Source of the DNA: a bacterium
GTDB taxonomy: Bacteria > Omnitrophota > Gorgyraeia > Zapsychrales > Zapsychraceae
DNA: 64,000 nt
Reading direction: 5' to 3'
NCBI GenBank assembly: GCA_030429765.1
Contig: JAUIER010000001.1
Coordinates: forward strand, 129,302 to 193,301
Shown piece by piece: positions 3,352 to 54,786 of this stretch (the stretch's first letter is position 1; every line of letters starts with the position of its first letter). Made by a program: the position numbers and the translations under genes. The notes beneath the pieces are model-generated. The model saw only the letters and a program-made list of their open reading frames with translations. It was not told where the DNA came from and ran no database searches.

Positions 3352-3738
3352 CTATTTTGGGAGGTGATTAATTGAGAGGACAGCAAAGGTTTCGTAATCT
3401 GTTTCACTGATCGTGGTTTGGTAGCCGAACACCTGAACCAATCCCATTCCTTTCTGCGTTTTATCCCCCAGCCGATGTTCGAGTAAAATACCTACCCCCG
3501 ACCAAACACACATAACTCCCTCTGGGCAGGGTTCATTGAAAAAATCCAGGATGCGTATGGAATAGCGGGTGTTTTCAAGCTTCACGCATTCTTCTTTCCC
3601 CAAAGAGACGGGTTCATTCAGGTGGACTTCAATACATGCGACGTCCGATCGGATTTCTGTGGCCAGTCCCGTAGTTGTGAATAGCCATCCAAAGATTAGC
3701 GTTGTGGATACGACTTTTTTGATAGTAGCGAATGTCAT
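3352..3738 (-). CDS. secreted hypothetical protein (128 aa, several Cys)
   Basis: N-terminal signal-like hydrophobic segment (TLIFGWLFTTTGLA); ORF fills the gap between flanking genes. Confidence 0.4.
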   Translation of the reverse strand: MTFATIKKVVSTTLIFGWLFTTTGLATEIRSDVACIEVHLNEPVSLGKEECVKLENTRYSIRILDFFNEPCPEGVMCVWSGVGILLEHRLGDKTQKGMGLVQVFGYQTTISETDYETFAVLSINHLPK

Positions 3739-8799: not shown

Positions 8800-9414
8800 A
8801 TGAAAAAATTGATGCTGACACTGTTGTTTGCCGTTTGGATTGCCGGTATACCGGCGAACGCCCAGGCGCTATTGCTGTACAAGGATACATTCCTCAACGC
8901 GACACGCGAGCAAATCGATCCGGTCGTCGGGGTGCAGGGATTTTATGTGAATGATTTTGCGACGGAATTCTTTAACGGCTATACGATTGATTTATCTGAT
9001 CCGCTAACTGTGGGATCGATCTTCACGTCTTCCGCCGGTGATGTGGGCTTCGGGACATTTGCCGCTTATCTGACTGATGGTATCGAGCAAAGCTGGCAGG
9101 CGCGGTTTGTATTGAGCAACGGCATTCAGGCGTTGCAGCGGTCCGAGCCGTTGAGTTTCGGAACGAGTCTCTTTAGTGCCAACAATATCGATCTGGCCGG
9201 CTACCGTATAGATCAACTACAATTTTCGGTCGATTCGGTGGAGGCCCTGGCTGCGGCTTCCGGCTTTAGATGGACAACCAGTATCTCGGTCTTCGGCGAT
9301 TTGGATTCAACGCCCAATGCCATTCCTGAACCGTCAACACTCCTGCTCCTGGGCATGGGGATGACTGGAATGATTATACGTCGACGTCGTGACAGCGATC
9401 GTGCTGCGGTGTAA
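8800..9414 (+). CDS. PEP-CTERM sorting domain protein (204 aa)
   Basis: signal peptide; C-terminus IPEPSTLLLLGMGMTGMIIRRRRD = PEP + TM + Arg cluster. Confidence 0.65.
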   Translation: MKKLMLTLLFAVWIAGIPANAQALLLYKDTFLNATREQIDPVVGVQGFYVNDFATEFFNGYTIDLSDPLTVGSIFTSSAGDVGFGTFAAYLTDGIEQSWQARFVLSNGIQALQRSEPLSFGTSLFSANNIDLAGYRIDQLQFSVDSVEALAAASGFRWTTSISVFGDLDSTPNAIPEPSTLLLLGMGMTGMIIRRRRDSDRAAV

Positions 9415-9450: not shown

Positions 9451-10878
9451 ATGTTATCCAACCGGTATCAATATACCATCCGGCGTCTGATTTATTCATG
9501 CGCCATCGTGTTTCTATCCCTATTTTCAAATGTGATCTATGCGCCGGCGATGGATCGGTCACCCCAGTCCGAGTCACATGACCGTGAGTGGGTCGTGATT
9601 TGGCATGACGAATTTGACGGTGATCGTGTCAATCCTGCCAAATGGCGCATTGAAGACGCCGCGCTGATCAAAAACAACGAACAGCAATACTACACGCCGG
9701 AAGATGTGTATCTGGAAGACGGACATCTGGTACTCCGCAGTCAGCAGCGTCCGATGGGCGGACGTGATTACACATCCGGATTGGTCGAGACCAAGGGGTT
9801 GTTTACATTCACCTACGGGCGGGTGGAGGTGCGCGCGCGATTACCCAAGGGTAAAGGCATTTGGCCGGCGCACTGGATGATGAACGCCGTCGGAACCTGG
9901 CCGCCCGAGATCGACATCATGGAGATGTTGGGGCATCGGCCAACCAAGATTCATATGACCAATCACTTTGGTGTTCATCCACGCAACTCCCGGCACGGCG
10001 GGTATTATGAAGGGCCGGACTATTCAGCAGACTTTCACACCTATGCGATTGAGTGGACACCGGACGAAATAAAATGGTTTATCGACGGTGTTGAACGGTT
10101 TAGCACGCGAAAGTATGTTCATGATGTCCCGTTTTACATTATTCTCAACACGGCGGTCGGCGGCAATTGGCCGGGCTACCCGGATGAGACTACGGAGTTT
10201 CCGCAGTATCACCACATTGACTACGTTCGCGTTTACAAAAAGAATGTGCCGGGGACGGGATTTGTGTATCTGACAGCTGAACATGGACAGGTGAGCCAGC
10301 AGCCGAACGAACACCGTTATGCCTTGGGTACGACGATTCAGTTGGCGGCCAAGCCCGATATCGGATATAAATTTTCGCATTGGACAGGTGATTTGGAAGG
10401 GACCCAGAATCCGTTGGATCTGACCATCGCCGGCAATGTTCGGGCGGCAGCAGTTTTTGCTGAAGATCCGGACGCCCCCGGATTAATTTCGTCCCGGGCG
10501 GCGGTGCTGTCATCCTCGCAGGAAAGCGATCAATTGGGGCCGGCCAACGTGGTGGATGGAAATCTGGGAACGCGTTGGTCCTCAGAGTTTTCAGATCCGC
10601 AATGGATCCAGATTGATTTGGGGGAAGCTCGTTTGATTGAGGCGATGCGGCTGAATTGGGAGAATGCGTTTGCCCGGAGTTATGCGATCGCGGTATCCGA
10701 TGATGCCCTCACATGGAGTACGGTCTATGCCAAGGCCGATTCTAACGGAGGGGTTCATAACATACGGCTGGTCCAATCCGTCTCGGCCCGCTACATCCGG
10801 CTTACGGGAACGGAGCGGGGCACTCAATGGGGCTATTCACTCTGGGAATTTGAGGTATTCGGTCAATCGCAGGAGTAG
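9451..10878 (+). CDS. glycoside hydrolase family 16 (beta-glucanase/laminarinase-like) with C-terminal F5/8 type C (discoidin) domain
   Basis: GH16 catalytic motif EIDIMEM; WHDEFDG; C-terminal RWSSEFSDPQWIQIDLG typical of discoidin domains; N-terminal signal/TM. Confidence 0.75.
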   Translation: MLSNRYQYTIRRLIYSCAIVFLSLFSNVIYAPAMDRSPQSESHDREWVVIWHDEFDGDRVNPAKWRIEDAALIKNNEQQYYTPEDVYLEDGHLVLRSQQRPMGGRDYTSGLVETKGLFTFTYGRVEVRARLPKGKGIWPAHWMMNAVGTWPPEIDIMEMLGHRPTKIHMTNHFGVHPRNSRHGGYYEGPDYSADFHTYAIEWTPDEIKWFIDGVERFSTRKYVHDVPFYIILNTAVGGNWPGYPDETTEFPQYHHIDYVRVYKKNVPGTGFVYLTAEHGQVSQQPNEHRYALGTTIQLAAKPDIGYKFSHWTGDLEGTQNPLDLTIAGNVRAAAVFAEDPDAPGLISSRAAVLSSSQESDQLGPANVVDGNLGTRWSSEFSDPQWIQIDLGEARLIEAMRLNWENAFARSYAIAVSDDALTWSTVYAKADSNGGVHNIRLVQSVSARYIRLTGTERGTQWGYSLWEFEVFGQSQE

Positions 10879-28150: not shown

Positions 28151-28329
28151 CCGGTGCATATAGAAGTAGGCTTACGTGTAAATGACAATTTGTTCGGCGA
28201 ACGGTTCAAAATATTTCTTGTTTTTCGCCGGCAATGTTGTACACTTTACCTAGATGTTTCGGGAGTAAAGGTAAACCATTCGTAAGGGTGGGGCCCCTGA
28301 TATTCAGGGATTTGCGGTTTTCTCACACA

Positions 28330-28347
28330 GTTCACATCCATGTGAAC
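28330..28347. promoter_or_regulatory. perfect 18-bp palindrome GTTCACAT-CC-ATGTGAAC in the 500-nt leader of the 28652 gene
   Basis: exact inverted repeat seen directly; operator-like. Confidence 0.4.
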
Positions 28348-28651
28348 GCTGAACCGTAGATACAAAACTAAAGGGTCCAGCAGCGAGCTGGATAGCCAGT
28401 TGCCTCTTGAGCAGCATCAGCAGATGCCTGTTCCACTTATTGATGGGGCAGGTTTTTTTGTGCCTGCCGATTCAATTCAATATCTTTTCTGGAGTGATTC
28501 AACTCAAAATTCAAGGGGAAAACAGCACGTGACGTGTTGTTGCAGGGTGTTCAGGGAGTTTTTTCAATTTTGCGATCAAGGGGAACCCGTCGTTGTGCAG
28601 GACTGTCGGGGAGTGAAAATTTAGCGTACTACGACCAAATAGGAGAGTCAG

Positions 28652-31600
28652 ATGAAAAAGCTTATTCTTGGATTATGCCTCATGTTCTGTGCAATCCCTA
28701 TCAATGTCAGCGCCGCTGAAGTTCGGGTGAACTTTGGTCCGGCCAATTCAACAAGTCCCCAGGATTATATCCTCGATGACGGAACCGCCTACACGGTCGA
28801 ACGCGGATATGGATGGGATGGAGAGGTGTTTGTCGAAGAATGGGTCGTCAATGCGGATCCCCGTCTCAACACGATGGCGTGGGAATGGTCATGGGAAAGT
28901 TCGACGTGGATGTATGATCTTCCCAATGGAAACTACAAGGTTTCGCTTGAAGCGGGTAATTCAAATTTTACACACGGTCCCCACACCATCGAAGTCGAGG
29001 GGGTAAAAGTCATCGATGGGCAGGGCGGTCCGCCGAATCAGTTTTTCAAAGTGACGGAACATCCGGTCACAATTACCGACGGACAGCTCAACATAAAGAT
29101 TGGACCGTCAGGAGGGCACTCGGCGATCAACTACGTGATCATCGAAGATGCGGTGGGTGGAGATCCGGTAAATCAGGCGCCTTCGGTTGAAGCGGGCGCG
29201 GATCAAACTATCACCTTACCGGGGATGGTCGTCTTGACGGCAGAGGTTAGTGATGATGGATTGCCTTCGAATCAACTGATATCTGAATGGAAGCAGATCA
29301 GCGGTCCGGCGGGAGCTACCATCAATAACGCCCAGCAAACTCGGACCAGCGTCGATTTTGTCCAGGCGGGAACATATGTTTTTGAGATTGTGGTCAGTGA
29401 TGGTGAATTGAGCGCAGCGGACAGAGTATCGGTTGTGGTGAATGAGCTGGGGTCGTTTTCGGATGTATACATAAATTTTCAACCGGCCAATGATGACGTT
29501 CCATCCGGCTATGTCAAAGATGATGGTTCCGCCTATTCAGTATCGAGAGGATATGGATGGATGGGAGAGGTGCATGTGGAAACCTGGCCGAACAATGCTG
29601 ATTCGCGTTTGAATTCTATGGCATGGGAATGGTCCTGGGAGTCGTCTACCTGGAATTATGATCTTCCCAATGGTAATTATTTAATCGCCTTACAGTCGGG
29701 AAATTCAAACTTTACCCATGGTCCACACAAAATTGCTGTGGAGGGTGAGCTGGTGATTAATGGGCAAGGTGGCGCGCCGAATACGTTCGTTCTGGTTGAA
29801 AATCATCCCGTCACCGTCGCCGATGGACAATTGAATATCAAGCTAGGTCCTTCGGGCGGTAACAGCACGATTAACTACGTCATTATCAAAGCGGCTAATG
29901 GTTCCGGACAGGTGAATCAAATGCCGGTTGTTGACGCCGGGGCGGATCAGCAGATCATGATGGATACCGCTGCACAGCTGGATGGGGCGGTGAGTGATGA
30001 CGGATTACCGTTGGTTCCGGGTAATGTCGAAATTTCATGGAATCAAATGAGCGGTCCGGGAACGGCCATGTTCGAGGACGTGCGCGTGGAAGATCCCCGT
30101 GTGACTTTTACCAAGGCCGGTGAATATCATTTACAGCTGGTGGCCAGTGATGGTGAACTATCGGCCAGCGATGAGGTTATGGTGAAGGTGACAGATGGTG
30201 TGCCGGATCCTGTCGATGATATACGTGTCAATTTTCAACCGGCTACAAGTCACGTTCCCGTGGGTTATCTGGTCGATGATGGAAGTGCATATGATAACGC
30301 CCGTGGTTATGGCTGGCTGGGAGATGTCCGGGCCGAAGAGTGGCCCAATAACACAGATCAGCGTCTGAATACCATGGTGTGGGAGTGGTCATGGGAAACG
30401 TCAACGTGGGTCATGGATCTGCCCAACGGGGAGTACATGATTAGTCTCGAGGCGGGTAATACGAACTTTTCACACGGTCCGCACGTGATCGAAGTTGAAG
30501 GTCAGAAGGTGGTGGACGGATTTGCCTCATCGGCCAACAATTTTGCAAAGGTGGTTAATCATCCGGTAACGGTCACCGATGGAAAGTTGCATGTCAAGTT
30601 GGGGCCGTCCGGTGGAAATAGTACGATCAACTACATTATCATCAGCCAATCAGGTATCACGCCGACAAATGAGCCGCCAGTCGTATCGGCCGGTACAGAT
30701 CAGAATATTGTGTTGCCCGATTCGGCGACATTAACAGCGCAGGTGTCGGATGATGGATTGCCGTCCCCGAGTCAATTGAGTACGATGTGGTCATTCCAAA
30801 GTGGACCTGCCCCGGTGACCATTGAAAGCGAGCAAAGTCTTCAAACGCAGGTGAATTTCACAGCAGGCGGGACATACATATTCAGGATGACGGCTAGCGA
30901 CGGCGTCTTGTCGATGACCGACGATGTCACCGTGATGGTTGGTGATGATCCGGTGAACAATTCAGTGGGATTAGTTGCACATTGGCCGATGGATGAATCC
31001 GGCGGGAATATAATCGTTGACCGAATGGGAAGCGGATCCGACGGGATGTTGATCAATATGGAAGACGGTGATTTCATGCCCGGACAATTACGTAATGGTC
31101 TTGAGTTTGACGGCGTCGATGAATATGCCAATATCGGTGCCACGCCCGGGATTGTCATCAGCAATGAAATCACAGTATCGGCCTGGGTTCGAAGTTACTC
31201 GGATGGCTATGGCGTGATTATCAGTCGTCACATGTCGGGTGATCACGGATGGATGCTGTCGCGAACACCGAACAATGACAGCTTTGAGTGGAGAATATCA
31301 ACGGATGGTAATAATTGGTTCGGCGGAACCACTTCAGACAATAGTTTCGAAACCAATCAATGGTATCACGTGTCAGCCTCTTACGATGGCGATGTGATGC
31401 GGGTTTTTATCGACGGTGTTGAAGACACCGGTGGGATGTTTCCATTCAATGTTTCCGGTGTGATGCACAAATCAGACGCGCCCCTGCAGATTGCGCGTGA
31501 TGAATTCAATGGAGATAACTTCAGCTTCCACGGGATGCTGGATGATATTCGGATGTACGATATCGCCTTGTCGGCAACGGAAGCGCAGAATCTCTATAAT

Positions 31601-33397
31601 AGTGTTCGTCCCGTCGTCGATGATGGCAGCGATCAGGAAGTGACGTTTGATCTCAACGGTATCCCCAACATATGGGATCAGAATCTCTTGCATGATGATG
31701 CGTTCGCGGCGGTGCGGATGGAACCATCGCAGGTCGGCAACACCTGTTTTGTCGACGGGACGTTGGGTATTAATCCCGACGACCGTCTGGCCAGTGGAAA
31801 TATTCGGCAAATCGAGGAGATGAAGTACACACTCAATGAAGTGCCGCGTCTGGCCAATGGCGAATATGATATTGCGCAGATTAAGTTCTACAAGACCTTA
31901 AAAGCGGCTACAAACCGCTACAGCGGTTGTAACGCGATGGGGGACCGCGTGCTGGTCCGCAAGGGTGTTTATCATGAGCATTTGTTTCTCGTTGAGTTTC
32001 AAAACTACGGCGGGGGTGATGTGGCGGATGGATACGGCATCGGTCCTATGGATGAACCGTTTGTGATTGACGCCAGTGATACCACTAAGATGGAAGGTCC
32101 ATGGGAGGCGTATGATCAGGAGATATATCGTGCCAAATGGGGGCTGAATGTCTTTCCTAGTTGGGTCGTAATGGATGGCAATTTCCGATCATCGCGTCCG
32201 GAGTATACGCTCAATGCCATTGTTGGTAAAGACGGTAGGTTCTTTTATGATACATCGACGGACTATCTGTACGTGAATACCAGCGGTGTGCATCCGGATG
32301 ACAGGAGTCTAATCGTATCCCGTCATGATGACTCCAATGGATTAATGGCGATCATTAGTCCGGTCGAAAATATCGAGTTGACGGGATTTATCCTGCGGGG
32401 GGCTCCAAGTACCGGGTTGTGGCAAACCGGAGATGGAGCGCATGTGCATCATGTCAAGTTTGAATTCTGTGGACGATCATGCGCCAATTTGACGGATGCC
32501 CAAAATTCCTTGATTGAAAAAAACATCATTACCGCGCCAGTAATGCAGTGGTGGCCGCGCGGTCGAACCAGTGTGCGCGGATTATGGCCATCGGGAACAC
32601 AGGTTGGTAATGGCAGCACGTTCCGATATAATCTCGTTTCCAATAGTGGAGGTGAGGGTGTTGGAACGAATGGGCATGATATTTTGGTATTCCAGAACGT
32701 CATTCGTGATTCTTGGTCGGTAAACCTGTATCCGTCAGGTAGTCGAAATGTTACAATCGAAGAGAATCTAATCTACAACACCAAAGTTGACTATGCCGAT
32801 GGGACGGATGCTGATCGTGTGCCGGAGGGGGCTGATGAGCCTTACATGCGTCGACGGATGCGTCCTATTGGTATTCTTATGGGATCAGAGGAAGATACCG
32901 ATCCACTCTCCATTAACTACGTCCTGCGAAAAAACGTGTTAGTCAATAACAGGTACGCCATAAGTTTATACGCCCTGGCCCAAGGCAGCGGCTGGAAGCA
33001 GATTACGATGGAGAACAATGTGATCATCCTGCCGGCGTATGATCCGGCTGAAATATTCGACACGTTCTATGGCCTGCACGCGCATGGCACGGTCTACGAC
33101 TTCGAAAATTACTTTACTGACAATATTGTGATCAATCCTGCGGAGACCGGACGGATTATCGGTCGAATTTGGGATTCGGTCATCACTAATGAAGCCTTCA
33201 CGATCTCGGGCAATATGTGGTACACGTCGGCCGGGACGCGGCAGTTCGAATACCGTCAAACCCTGTATGATTATCAGCAATGGTTATCCGTTACGCCATA
33301 CGGAGCGGGAAGTTCTCACGGAACCATTCCGGCGGAAACTCCGTGGGAGATCAACGGGCAGAAGATTCCGGTGCCTGATTATATCCCGGTAAAATAA
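28652..33397 (+). CDS. giant secreted multidomain carbohydrate-active protein: 3x candidate carbohydrate-binding module (malectin-like), Ig-like (PKD/Big-type) spacers, LamG domain, C-terminal right-handed beta-helix
   Basis: signal peptide; three ~145-aa repeats (VNFQPA..P.GY..DDG.AY...RGYGW.GEV..E.W.NAD.RLN.M.WEWSWE.STW.YDLPNG.Y...LE.GN.NF.HGPH.I.VEG...DG); SDDGLP Ig-like spacers; LamG pattern WYHVSASYDG...VFIDG; C-terminal repetitive N/G/V-rich beta-helix region. Confidence 0.7.
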   Translation: MKKLILGLCLMFCAIPINVSAAEVRVNFGPANSTSPQDYILDDGTAYTVERGYGWDGEVFVEEWVVNADPRLNTMAWEWSWESSTWMYDLPNGNYKVSLEAGNSNFTHGPHTIEVEGVKVIDGQGGPPNQFFKVTEHPVTITDGQLNIKIGPSGGHSAINYVIIEDAVGGDPVNQAPSVEAGADQTITLPGMVVLTAEVSDDGLPSNQLISEWKQISGPAGATINNAQQTRTSVDFVQAGTYVFEIVVSDGELSAADRVSVVVNELGSFSDVYINFQPANDDVPSGYVKDDGSAYSVSRGYGWMGEVHVETWPNNADSRLNSMAWEWSWESSTWNYDLPNGNYLIALQSGNSNFTHGPHKIAVEGELVINGQGGAPNTFVLVENHPVTVADGQLNIKLGPSGGNSTINYVIIKAANGSGQVNQMPVVDAGADQQIMMDTAAQLDGAVSDDGLPLVPGNVEISWNQMSGPGTAMFEDVRVEDPRVTFTKAGEYHLQLVASDGELSASDEVMVKVTDGVPDPVDDIRVNFQPATSHVPVGYLVDDGSAYDNARGYGWLGDVRAEEWPNNTDQRLNTMVWEWSWETSTWVMDLPNGEYMISLEAGNTNFSHGPHVIEVEGQKVVDGFASSANNFAKVVNHPVTVTDGKLHVKLGPSGGNSTINYIIISQSGITPTNEPPVVSAGTDQNIVLPDSATLTAQVSDDGLPSPSQLSTMWSFQSGPAPVTIESEQSLQTQVNFTAGGTYIFRMTASDGVLSMTDDVTVMVGDDPVNNSVGLVAHWPMDESGGNIIVDRMGSGSDGMLINMEDGDFMPGQLRNGLEFDGVDEYANIGATPGIVISNEITVSAWVRSYSDGYGVIISRHMSGDHGWMLSRTPNNDSFEWRISTDGNNWFGGTTSDNSFETNQWYHVSASYDGDVMRVFIDGVEDTGGMFPFNVSGVMHKSDAPLQIARDEFNGDNFSFHGMLDDIRMYDIALSATEAQNLYNSVRPVVDDGSDQEVTFDLNGIPNIWDQNLLHDDAFAAVRMEPSQVGNTCFVDGTLGINPDDRLASGNIRQIEEMKYTLNEVPRLANGEYDIAQIKFYKTLKAATNRYSGCNAMGDRVLVRKGVYHEHLFLVEFQNYGGGDVADGYGIGPMDEPFVIDASDTTKMEGPWEAYDQEIYRAKWGLNVFPSWVVMDGNFRSSRPEYTLNAIVGKDGRFFYDTSTDYLYVNTSGVHPDDRSLIVSRHDDSNGLMAIISPVENIELTGFILRGAPSTGLWQTGDGAHVHHVKFEFCGRSCANLTDAQNSLIEKNIITAPVMQWWPRGRTSVRGLWPSGTQVGNGSTFRYNLVSNSGGEGVGTNGHDILVFQNVIRDSWSVNLYPSGSRNVTIEENLIYNTKVDYADGTDADRVPEGADEPYMRRRMRPIGILMGSEEDTDPLSINYVLRKNVLVNNRYAISLYALAQGSGWKQITMENNVIILPAYDPAEIFDTFYGLHAHGTVYDFENYFTDNIVINPAETGRIIGRIWDSVITNEAFTISGNMWYTSAGTRQFEYRQTLYDYQQWLSVTPYGAGSSHGTIPAETPWEINGQKIPVPDYIPVK
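28718..30650 (+). repeat. three tandem diverged copies (about 60% aa identity) of the ~430-nt malectin-like domain module (approx. 28718-29153, 29467-29890, 30222-30650)
   Basis: protein-level repeat read directly from the translation. Confidence 0.7.
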
Positions 33398-54371: not shown

Positions 54372-54400
54372 TTGACAAAGCGGAGGAGTTCGGGCATACT
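54372..54400 (+). promoter_or_regulatory. sigma70-type promoter (TTGACA-N17-CATACT) with a long 5' UTR upstream of the cold-shock gene
   Basis: consensus -35 and near-consensus -10 at 17-nt spacing, ~130 nt before ATG. Confidence 0.4.
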
Positions 54401-54530
54401 TGTGCATGAGTAAATCAGTAGAGAAGAACACCGTTATCCGTGAGTTCGAAGTTCCTGATCTCGCGGATTTTTTTGTAGTTCCATCTGTCATTGTTTACTC
54501 GAAGTTTTTGTTGAAAGGAGGTAGTAAATT

Positions 54531-54731
54531 ATGGCAACAGGAACAGTAAAATGGTTTAACGACCAAAAAGGTTTTGGTTTTATCACATCGGAATCAGGTG
54601 GTGACGTTTTCGTTCATCATTCAGAAATCCAAGGTGAAGGTTACAAAACTCTGAAGGAAGGTCAAGCGGTTGAATTTGATATCGTTGACGGACCTAAAGG
54701 GGACCAAGCCAAGAACGTTGTGAAATCATAA
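54531..54731 (+). CDS. cspA: cold-shock protein, CspA family
   Basis: 66 aa; [18 protein letters not shown] (RNP1) and VFVHHS (RNP2). Confidence 0.9.
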
Positions 54732-54750
54732 CGTAATTTGAATCAAAATC

Positions 54751-54786
54751 GGCCCGGTTTACATATGTAAGCCGGGCCTTTTTTGT
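54751..54786 (+). terminator. Rho-independent terminator of the csp gene
   Basis: GGCCCGG-loop-CCGGGCC followed by TTTTTTGTG. Confidence 0.6.

Follow-up and report, generated by a model that had tools for sequence, protein, structure and literature searches.

The locus raises two related questions: what the long leader ahead of a gene for a large secreted protein does, and on what that protein acts. The locus lies in a stretch of 64,000 nucleotides of contig JAUIER010000001.1 from an Omnitrophota bacterium (the window, by which we mean the whole of this stretch), and comprises an open reading frame (ORF) of 1581 residues (28652-33397, plus strand) preceded by an intergenic leader of 501 nt (28151-28651). 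Our analysis indicates that the leader is likely to contain a functional riboswitch of the cyclic di-GMP (c-di-GMP) type, a candidate recognised from its sequence and predicted fold. We also favour, with somewhat less assurance, the view that the leader RNA, the Sec-exported glycan-binding protein and its beta-helix form a single regulatory and coding unit.

In the leader, the segment 28270-28294 was first picked by eye as a P2 of the c-di-GMP-I (GEMM-I) type, lying about 70 nt upstream of a junction and a P3 helix. It holds a hairpin with a GNRA tetraloop (CCAUUC-GUAA-GGGUGG, 28276-28291), in agreement with the P2 of this class. The core motifs are kept as well: the window reads GGUAAA / GGC / ACAAAAC / GGGUCC...GGAUAGCC / GCC and the reference GGCAAA / GAC / GCAAAGC / GGGUC...GACAGCC / xCC tail, and the C-to-U and G-to-A deviations are the two sides of one clamp pair. 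The 5' half of this clamp is formed by G28271 and U28272 and the 3' half lies in the junction. By motif position, in the Vc2 numbering, G28270, A28364, C28403 and the pair C28294-G28395 presumably correspond to G20, A47, C92 and the interhelical C-G pair; the second and third of these stand in the junction and in the tail, respectively, and the GGC carries the equivalent of C44. These ligand-contact nucleotides and the interhelical pair are conserved in c-di-GMP-I riboswitches (PMC4744006). The pattern CAAARC-N4-GGGTC-N5-30-GAYAGCC has one match in the window, in the 28362-28404 region, where none is expected, and the fold of 28255-28470 is more stable than all 200 shuffles (z = -3.9).

An Rfam scan of the leader by E-value gave a single plausible match, to the c-di-GMP-I clan (CL00126) at 28332-28408. 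RF03168, the UAU variant, was the best model of the clan, with 23.4 bits and an E-value of 0.006-0.013 when the leader alone was searched, and all three clan models (RF01051, RF03167 and RF03168) match weakly at the same place. No match to this clan in the window reached the Rfam gathering level.

Metagenomes were scanned with a pattern derived from the window (P2-like-N55-85-junction-P3), which retrieved 16 loci, 12 of them tandem canonical c-di-GMP-I aptamers. Three others, L011, L016 and L019 (= L021), have no Rfam gathering match and show the same order of four hairpins as the window. The layout common to the four is GG(C/U)AAA, P2 with a GNRA loop, G(A/G)C, hairpin A, hairpin B, (G/A)CAAA(G/A)CUA..GGGUCC, a short loop, and GGAUAGCC..CC; the hairpins abut without linker in all of these divergent sequences, and the P3 loops measure 7-17 nt. 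L011 aligns with RF01051 from end to end at 30.2 bits, just under the cut-off of 35; in this alignment 81 nt stand in place of 19 in the model, and the columns of the P3 tetraloop receptor are deleted.

Unconstrained minimum free energy (MFE) folds give the same four hairpins in all four sequences. Of 92 pair cells, 91 are standard when the structures are aligned by hand and all 92 in a model-guided alignment, in which 12 of the 23 pairs are changed on both sides; none of 500 shuffles reached this, and slid controls paired in only 34-54%. All six P2 pairs are standard in the four sequences and four of them covary. Hairpin A occupies the same position in L011, L016 and L019 and has six pairs, four with compensatory changes, while in the outer stem of hairpin B the three counted positions all covary. 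The clamp pair U28272-A28362 is a double change relative to the C-G of the three other loci. Moreover, a covariance model built from L011, L016 and L019 alone, with the window left out (model R1), matches 28265-28409 over the full length of the model; the match scores 50.9 bits, contains no non-standard pair and is the sole one in the 64-kb window.

The genes downstream of two of the comparison loci encode type IV pilin-like proteins (L011) and a response regulator or receiver-domain protein (L021), both typical cargo of c-di-GMP riboswitches. The variant pattern had 0 matches in viral contigs.

Among the loci retrieved by the scan, L007, L009, L010, L013-L015, L017 and L022 are arrays of two to four tandem canonical c-di-GMP-I aptamers with a spacing of about 160 nt; L022 has three RF01051 matches and one c-di-GMP-I-GGC match in a single array. 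In L011 (4140-4170), L016 (~200-235) and L019 (~3490-3528), hairpin A contains an internal CG(U/C)AAA motif resembling the GEMM-I ACGCAAAGC junction; in the window, hairpin A is a plain stem of 6 bp. The motif hints at a tandem pair as the ancestor of the variant or at a new tertiary contact made by hairpin A, and because it is present in three loci an origin from a tandem aptamer pair is plausible.

The element lies upstream of the ORF on the same strand and is followed by a terminator-like site with a competing hairpin, which is the arrangement of a leader with an expression platform. This alternative hairpin would form at the expense of the terminator, whose 5' arm it uses, and shares its first three bases with the proposed P1. 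In the MFE fold of 28255-28470 the alternative hairpin takes the terminator 5' arm and GGCAGG pairs with CCUGCC; in constrained folds P1 and the terminator can coexist, and the energies of these states are similar. A scan of the leader for sigma-70 promoters found no site; by eye, TTGTTT-N16-TACACT (28218-28245) is a weak promoter candidate with 7 of 12 matches.

We propose that a transcript starting upstream of about 28258 would fold into an expanded c-di-GMP-I-type aptamer, with two extra hairpins between P2 and the GCAAAGC-type junction, all enclosed by a 2-bp GC clamp, and with a shortened P3 from which the type-1 tetraloop receptor would be gone. Ligand binding would stabilise P1 (28258-65 with 28404-11), which would occupy the first bases of the competing hairpin and so let the terminator form and end transcription; expression of the gene would then be expected at low c-di-GMP. 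Since P1 overlaps the first three bases of the alternative hairpin, the simplest logic is that a ligand-stabilised P1 favours the terminator. We infer this OFF behaviour from the overlap and offer it as tentative.

Closer to the gene, the ATG start codon is preceded at 7 nt by a Shine-Dalgarno sequence, AGGAG. The window protein (P0001) has one close homologue, P0002, which is 82% identical and has the same architecture; at the nucleotide level the two genes are 74.7% identical over their whole length. The proximal untranslated region (UTR) aligns with positions 1-122 of L001, the contig that carries P0002, at a mean column identity of 82%, the aligned stretch extending over the first 49 nt of the ORF as well, and contains an almost invariant block, GGTGTTCAGGGAGTTTTTTCA..TTGCGATCAAGGGGAACCCG. 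This conserved stretch may serve as a second promoter, or as a regulatory site of another kind, beyond the terminator. L001 starts 122 nt upstream of the orthologue ATG, and a second assembly, L006 (Logan ERR3428548), is 100% identical to the window and ends at window position 30661, in the second repeat unit. The breaks of these two independent short-read assemblies, in or just before the gene, are probably due to its internal repeats.

The domain architecture of the protein is certain. The preliminary description had called it a modular secreted enzyme in which three copies of a module alternate with Ig-like spacers and are followed by a LamG domain and a C-terminal beta-helix, and the modular, secreted organisation is upheld at each point by the ORF, by a signal peptide recognised by eye and by the Pfam calls. 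Pfam finds three K319L-like PKD domains (2.6e-36) as the spacers, and the three units of about 250 residues, each a module with its PKD domain, are 54-59% identical in pairs (E ~1e-96 to 1e-101). The LamG domain corresponds to a Laminin_G_3 match, and the beta-helix to a Beta_helix match (PF13229) at residues 1258-1457 (1.6e-9).

The modules had been interpreted as malectin-like and carbohydrate-binding, and this stands at the level of fold and superfamily. Pfam Malectin (PF11721) has no match in the whole protein or in single modules. The model that does match is PF21254, the galactose-binding domain (GBD) of beta-agarases and YxiM (AGA-YXIM_GBD), with 47.6 bits summed over the whole protein against a cut-off of 27; the single modules of about 147 residues score 23.8, 25.8 and 15.5 bits, below that cut-off. 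A profile of ten modules matches the N-terminal galactose-binding domain of Bacillus subtilis YxiM (9e-7). An AlphaFold (AF2) model of the module (predicted local distance difference test, pLDDT, 91.6) is a beta-sandwich that superposes on known galactose-binding-domain-like members of the carbohydrate-binding modules (CBM). Its best match in the PDB is YxiM (2o14; template modelling score, TM, 0.71), followed by the Bacteroides beta-glucuronidase chains 5uj6/6d8g (0.68-0.69), the FERONIA ectodomain (0.66) and human malectin (0.61), with lower values for CBM35, CBM6 and CBM61. We take the matched region of 5uj6/6d8g to be a CBM57/malectin-like domain and the FERONIA ectodomain to be malectin-like. 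The module thus has the beta-sandwich fold in common with the YxiM GBD, malectin and CBM57 (TM 0.61-0.71), at an identity of 12-24%, and its family has a signature of its own, NF(Q/G)P..GY..DDG..Y...RGYGW...DLPNG.Y...EG...N...PVTV.DG.L.

The same module is found in other proteins: P0008 (939 residues) has five near-identical tandem copies of it, and in P0109 (1374 residues) three copies are fused to a subtilisin (S8) domain. The unit therefore appears to be a mobile binding module, not tied to glycan-active enzymes.

The last 595 residues have no sequence relative in the PDB. With the beta-helix as query there was no match in PHROGs or NCBIfam, and no close relatives were found in reference genomes or in JGI metagenomes. 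An exhaustive HMMER search of 1.84 billion cluster representatives retrieved 130 clusters at E<=1e-3 and 26 at E<=1e-30, at about 30% identity. Most members of this family are stand-alone proteins of 570-700 residues; P0122 (1341 residues) has the domain twice in tandem. Among 67 aligned members WPRG (W1301-P-R-G1304), W1312, GEG (G1334-E1335-G1336), S1356, Y1360 and E1413 are invariant or nearly so, and an Asn ladder is likewise conserved; the strictly invariant polar residues in these 67 sequences are R1303, E1335, S1356, Y1360 and E1413.

Both the Pfam match and the parallel beta-helix fold place the domain in the pectin-lyase-like right-handed beta-helix superfamily. Of the 50 Foldseek matches listed for the AF2 model (pLDDT 83), almost all are beta-helix enzymes that act on carbohydrates. 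The top profile and Foldseek matches are the glycoside hydrolases (GH) GH136 LnbX, GH141 BT_1002 and GH120 XylC (Foldseek 1e-9 to 1e-5), with TM-scores of 0.3-0.5. The family profile matches GH136 lacto-N-biosidases at 4e-15 and GH141 BT_1002 at 1e-8, in alignments that are confined to a generic N-terminal cap (YV...G.D.N.G....P..T) and a C-terminal SPA..aG...DF.G..R...D.GA.E and do not extend over the catalytic coils. For the CAZy families considered (GH136, GH141, GH120, GH87, GH110, PL6 and others) we found no homology across the catalytic coils with conserved catalytic residues. The Vibrio polysaccharide lyase RbmB (9ozd), the mannuronan C5-epimerases AlgG/AlgE4 and the alginate lyases of polysaccharide lyase (PL) family 6, beta-helix enzymes that act on the exopolysaccharide of the producing cell itself, are 11-17% identical to the beta-helix of the window protein and have no catalytic motifs in common with it; unlike these enzymes, it is fused to five binding-type domains and encoded outside an exopolysaccharide (EPS) locus. 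The protein adds a new member to the superfamily of carbohydrate-active beta-helix proteins, within a family that has no characterised representative. A carbohydrate-directed function is predicted with good probability. The "lyase or hydrolase" of the preliminary description remains plausible as part of a wider choice, in that GH, PL, epimerase and adhesin structures match about equally and the chemistry is not fixed by them.

The genes of three relatives of the beta-helix were checked for context. That of P0121 lies downstream of GT4 and GT2 glycosyltransferases (GT), a Wzy_C polymerase and a polysaccharide deacetylase. The gene of P0123 is bordered on one side by those of a sigma-54 activator and a GGDEF-EAL protein and on the other by a cluster that contains GT4, Wzy_C and a flippase. 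For P0125, the neighbours are Wzy_C, a pyruvyl transferase and UDP-glucose dehydrogenase on one flank and, on the opposite flank, exosortase EpsH/EpsI. Because these three sit inside exopolysaccharide biosynthesis clusters, the family is an accessory of such loci. An Rfam scan of the loci of the beta-helix relatives found no riboswitch; the RNA is therefore not a general companion of the protein family.

We suggest that the Sec signal peptide would export the protein, that the three modules, spaced by PKD domains, would bind polysaccharide multivalently together with the LamG domain, and that the C-terminal beta-helix would act on the bound polymer. Because the relatives of the beta-helix are encoded inside exopolysaccharide biosynthesis clusters, its role is most likely the cutting or modification of matrix or capsule polysaccharide, as a putative hydrolase, lyase or epimerase.

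The neighbours of the gene in the window are DUF4331 and DUF4198 genes upstream and a DUF3108 gene downstream, the last of which is kept in L001. The DUF4331 protein had no close relatives in reference genomes, and no relative of the DUF4198 neighbour exceeded 35% identity. Another gene, 20 kb away, encodes a PEP-CTERM protein. The features of the locus and other genes of the window are collected in Table 1. Elsewhere in the window, 54394-54781 (plus strand) matches the cspA thermoregulator RNA (RF01766) directly upstream of an ORF starting at 54785; at 47.8 bits, with gathering at 78, the match is sub-threshold, and it is significant window-wide (E 4e-9).

Table 1. Positions of the leader elements, protein domains and other genes in the window (residues are those of the 1581-residue protein).
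Feature	Position	Strand	Residues	Basis or remark
Candidate c-di-GMP-I (GEMM-I)-type aptamer, expanded variant	28258-28411	+		R1 match, covariation
Proposed P1, 8 bp	28258-28265 with 28404-28411	+		
GGUAAA-CCAUUC-GUAA-GGGUGG-GGC: G20-equivalent, 5' clamp half, P2, C44-equivalent	28270-28294	+		
Inserted hairpin A, CCCUGA UAU UCAGGG	28295-28309	+		
Inserted hairpin B	28310-28361	+		outer stem 28310-28319 with 28352-28361
ACAAAACUAAA junction, short P3 (GGGUCC...GGAUAGCC), AGUUGCC tail	28362-28404	+		aligns to Rfam c-di-GMP-I-UAU and R1
Alternative (anti-terminator-like) hairpin, GAGCAG CAUC AGCA GAUG C CUGUUC	28409-28433	+		MFE of 28255-28470; putative role
Intrinsic-terminator-like stem-loop, 10 pairs then T7	28426-28460	+		in MFE of 28256-28475
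Proximal 5' UTR with Shine-Dalgarno	28535-28651	+		apparently more conserved than the gene in the 82%-identical orthologue
Signal peptide	28652-28714	+	1-21	by eye, Sec-like, MKKLILGLCLMFCAIPINVSA/AE
Galactose-binding/malectin-like module 1	28715-29155	+	22-168	
K319L-like PKD domain 1	29192-29440	+	181-263	Pfam
Galactose-binding/malectin-like module 2	29453-29896	+	268-415	
K319L-like PKD domain 2	29915-30193	+	~422-514	Pfam
Galactose-binding/malectin-like module 3	30206-30655	+	519-668	
K319L-like PKD domain 3	30698-30940	+	683-763	Pfam
Laminin_G_3 / concanavalin-like domain	31112-31582	+	821-977	Pfam, 2.7e-25
Right-handed beta-helix domain, uncharacterised family	31889-33319	+	~1080-1556	
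Probable surface/secreted protein, 1254 residues	4922-8686			without Pfam domain
PEP-CTERM protein	8800-9414			
GH16 + F5/8-type-C glucanase	9451-10878			
Probable surface/secreted protein, 1240 residues	17904-21626			weak polyhydroxybutyrate (PHB)-depolymerase-like esterase region
LamG-only protein, 275 residues	22847-23674			

Several observations weigh against an expanded riboswitch that controls an exopolysaccharide-acting enzyme. Window-wide, the RF03168 match is at noise level (23.4 bits, E 1.4, with gathering at 65.9), and the element of the window is the most divergent of the four (GGUAAA/ACAAAAC and not GGCAAA/GCAAAGC, and a hairpin A that is short and plain). With R1, canonical aptamers in tandem reach similar scores, though with broken hairpin-A pairs, and the score of the window is partly circular, the window-derived pattern having forced about 26 positions to match. 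Only four distinct sequences are available, in an alignment (A6) fitted to the structure, and the comparison with the orthologue stops 122 nt upstream of the ATG, short of the distal leader. Moreover, the terminator is 190 nt from the ATG and a second promoter could bypass the switch, and in the window the gene itself lies outside an EPS cluster.

Some of these points would also fit a decayed remnant of a tandem c-di-GMP-I pair, or an independent small RNA ending at 28460, that has ceased to control the 1581-residue protein's gene, the latter using a promoter of its own in 28535-28651. The R1 scores of the tandem arrays, which are common (12 of the 16 pattern loci), agree with this, as do the junction-like motif in hairpin A of the three other loci, the distance from terminator to ATG and a proximal UTR apparently better conserved than the coding sequence. 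However, all 23 pairs are intact in the window, the putative equivalents of the ligand contacts and of the interhelical pair are kept, and the stretch from the element to the ATG is free of ORFs and other genes; in addition, the two inserted hairpins, joined without linkers in four divergent sequences, argue for selection on the fold. We consider a remnant or an independent small RNA unlikely, and a working riboswitch for the gene downstream remains our preferred reading.

As regards the protein, it could be a non-catalytic adhesin or matrix scaffold, with the beta-helix as a binding surface as in PfbA and the modules anchoring cells to polysaccharide. Adhesins are among the structures that the beta-helix resembles, alongside hydrolases, lyases and epimerases, and the Foldseek matches listed are nearly all enzymes; a scaffold of this kind is improbable in our opinion, and an enzyme acting on matrix or capsule polysaccharide is preferred.

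A further possibility is that the aptamer senses another ligand, such as 3'3'-cGAMP (cyclic GMP-AMP) or another dinucleotide, owing to its altered architecture. The best Rfam model being the UAU variant class and not the canonical one, the ACAAAAC junction and a P3 without receptor would all be in keeping with this. Variants that bind cGAMP have A at the G20 position. The UAU alignment in Rfam, however, uses a false P2, and with the proposed P2 the G20-equivalent is G (28270), as in c-di-GMP binders, while the three sister loci have the canonical GGCAAA and GCAAAGC motifs. A different ligand is accordingly quite unlikely, and c-di-GMP is retained as the probable one.

Finally, the preliminary description had read the leader as DNA, reporting an operator-like "18-bp perfect palindrome" at 28330-28347 and a GGCAGG/CCTGCC hairpin at 28447-28468 as signs of dedicated regulation. 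The palindrome is in fact GTTCACAT-CC-ATGTGAAC, two perfectly complementary arms of 8 nt (28330-28337 and 28340-28347) around a non-palindromic centre of 2 nt, and forms the apical stem of hairpin B in the c-di-GMP-I-like aptamer. The search for further copies that had been proposed, run on the 64-kb window, gave no second exact copy, and with up to 3 mismatches there are 2 matches where 0.35 are expected, which 6 of 100 shuffles equal. The second inverted repeat is present, and overlaps the terminator: its GGCAGG arm doubles as the 3' arm of the 10-bp stem 28426-28453, which is followed by T7. Dedicated regulation is thus retained in spirit, with the RNA itself and not a transcription factor as the most probable regulator. 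That the repeat is an operator for a dimeric transcription factor, the likeness to a riboswitch being coincidental or secondary, is highly improbable: the perfect 8+2+8 arrangement and an apical part of hairpin B peculiar to the window (the other loci have different tips) would suit an operator, but its count in 64 kb is not above chance at 3 mismatches, it falls exactly at the expected stem tip of a four-hairpin fold common to three other loci, the by-eye promoter-like site lies upstream so that the repeat would be transcribed, and no regulator gene is adjacent.

We also advance, with some hesitation, the idea of an unrecognised structural subclass of c-di-GMP-I riboswitches, with a three-hairpin P2 domain and a receptor-less P3, present in several unrelated lineages and missed by Rfam thresholds, which possibly has a new tertiary contact or an altered affinity or specificity and here would switch an uncharacterised family of exopolysaccharide-acting beta-helix enzymes; matrix remodelling would in this way be coupled directly to the level of a second messenger. 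In the searchable literature we found no description of a GEMM-I riboswitch with an expanded P2, which is not proof of its absence. If the expanded aptamer binds c-di-GMP, the GEMM-I fold would tolerate the loss of the tetraloop-receptor dock given extra helices, and censuses of riboswitches by Rfam cut-offs would undercount the class; the element would be a natural test case for the tuning of a second-messenger sensor by peripheral helices. The beta-helix family is rare and conserved, lies in exopolysaccharide and exosortase loci and has no characterised member. The window protein joins it to five binding-type domains and is for that reason a tractable entry point to the substrate and chemistry of the family, and to a link between c-di-GMP and matrix processing through RNA.

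When compared with known systems, the element differs from c-di-GMP-I riboswitches in three respects. Between GGC and ACAAAAC it has 67 nt (28295-28361) forming two hairpins, where in the class P2 is connected straight to the junction and the architecture has two hairpins overall; P3 is cut to loops of 7-17 nt without the tetraloop receptor of type 1; and the variant elements score below the Rfam gathering thresholds (23-30 bits). Tandem c-di-GMP-I riboswitches, such as Bc3-5 of Bacillus thuringiensis (PMC4759541; reviewed in PMC9481103), likewise have more than two serial hairpins with GEMM-I motifs, and were retrieved by the same scan pattern; the inserted hairpins may have evolved from such arrangements. 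Unlike them, the variant has its junction and P3 motifs complete only once, with a single clamp around three hairpins, and Rfam finds no complete aptamer in the variant loci. With the c-di-GMP-I riboswitches Vc2 and Vc1 of Vibrio cholerae (RF01051) it has in common GG(C/U)AAA, the GNRA-capped P2, G(A/G)C, (G/A)CAAA(G/A)C, GGGUC...GAUAGCC and the GCC tail, as well as its place at the 5' end of a long leader, followed by a terminator. Vc1 lies at the start of the 225-244-nt UTR of gbpA, which encodes a secreted glycan-binding protein (PMC4744006). The cargo in the window, a secreted protein with glycan-binding-type modules, is of the same kind, and Vc1/gbpA is a close functional precedent for it.

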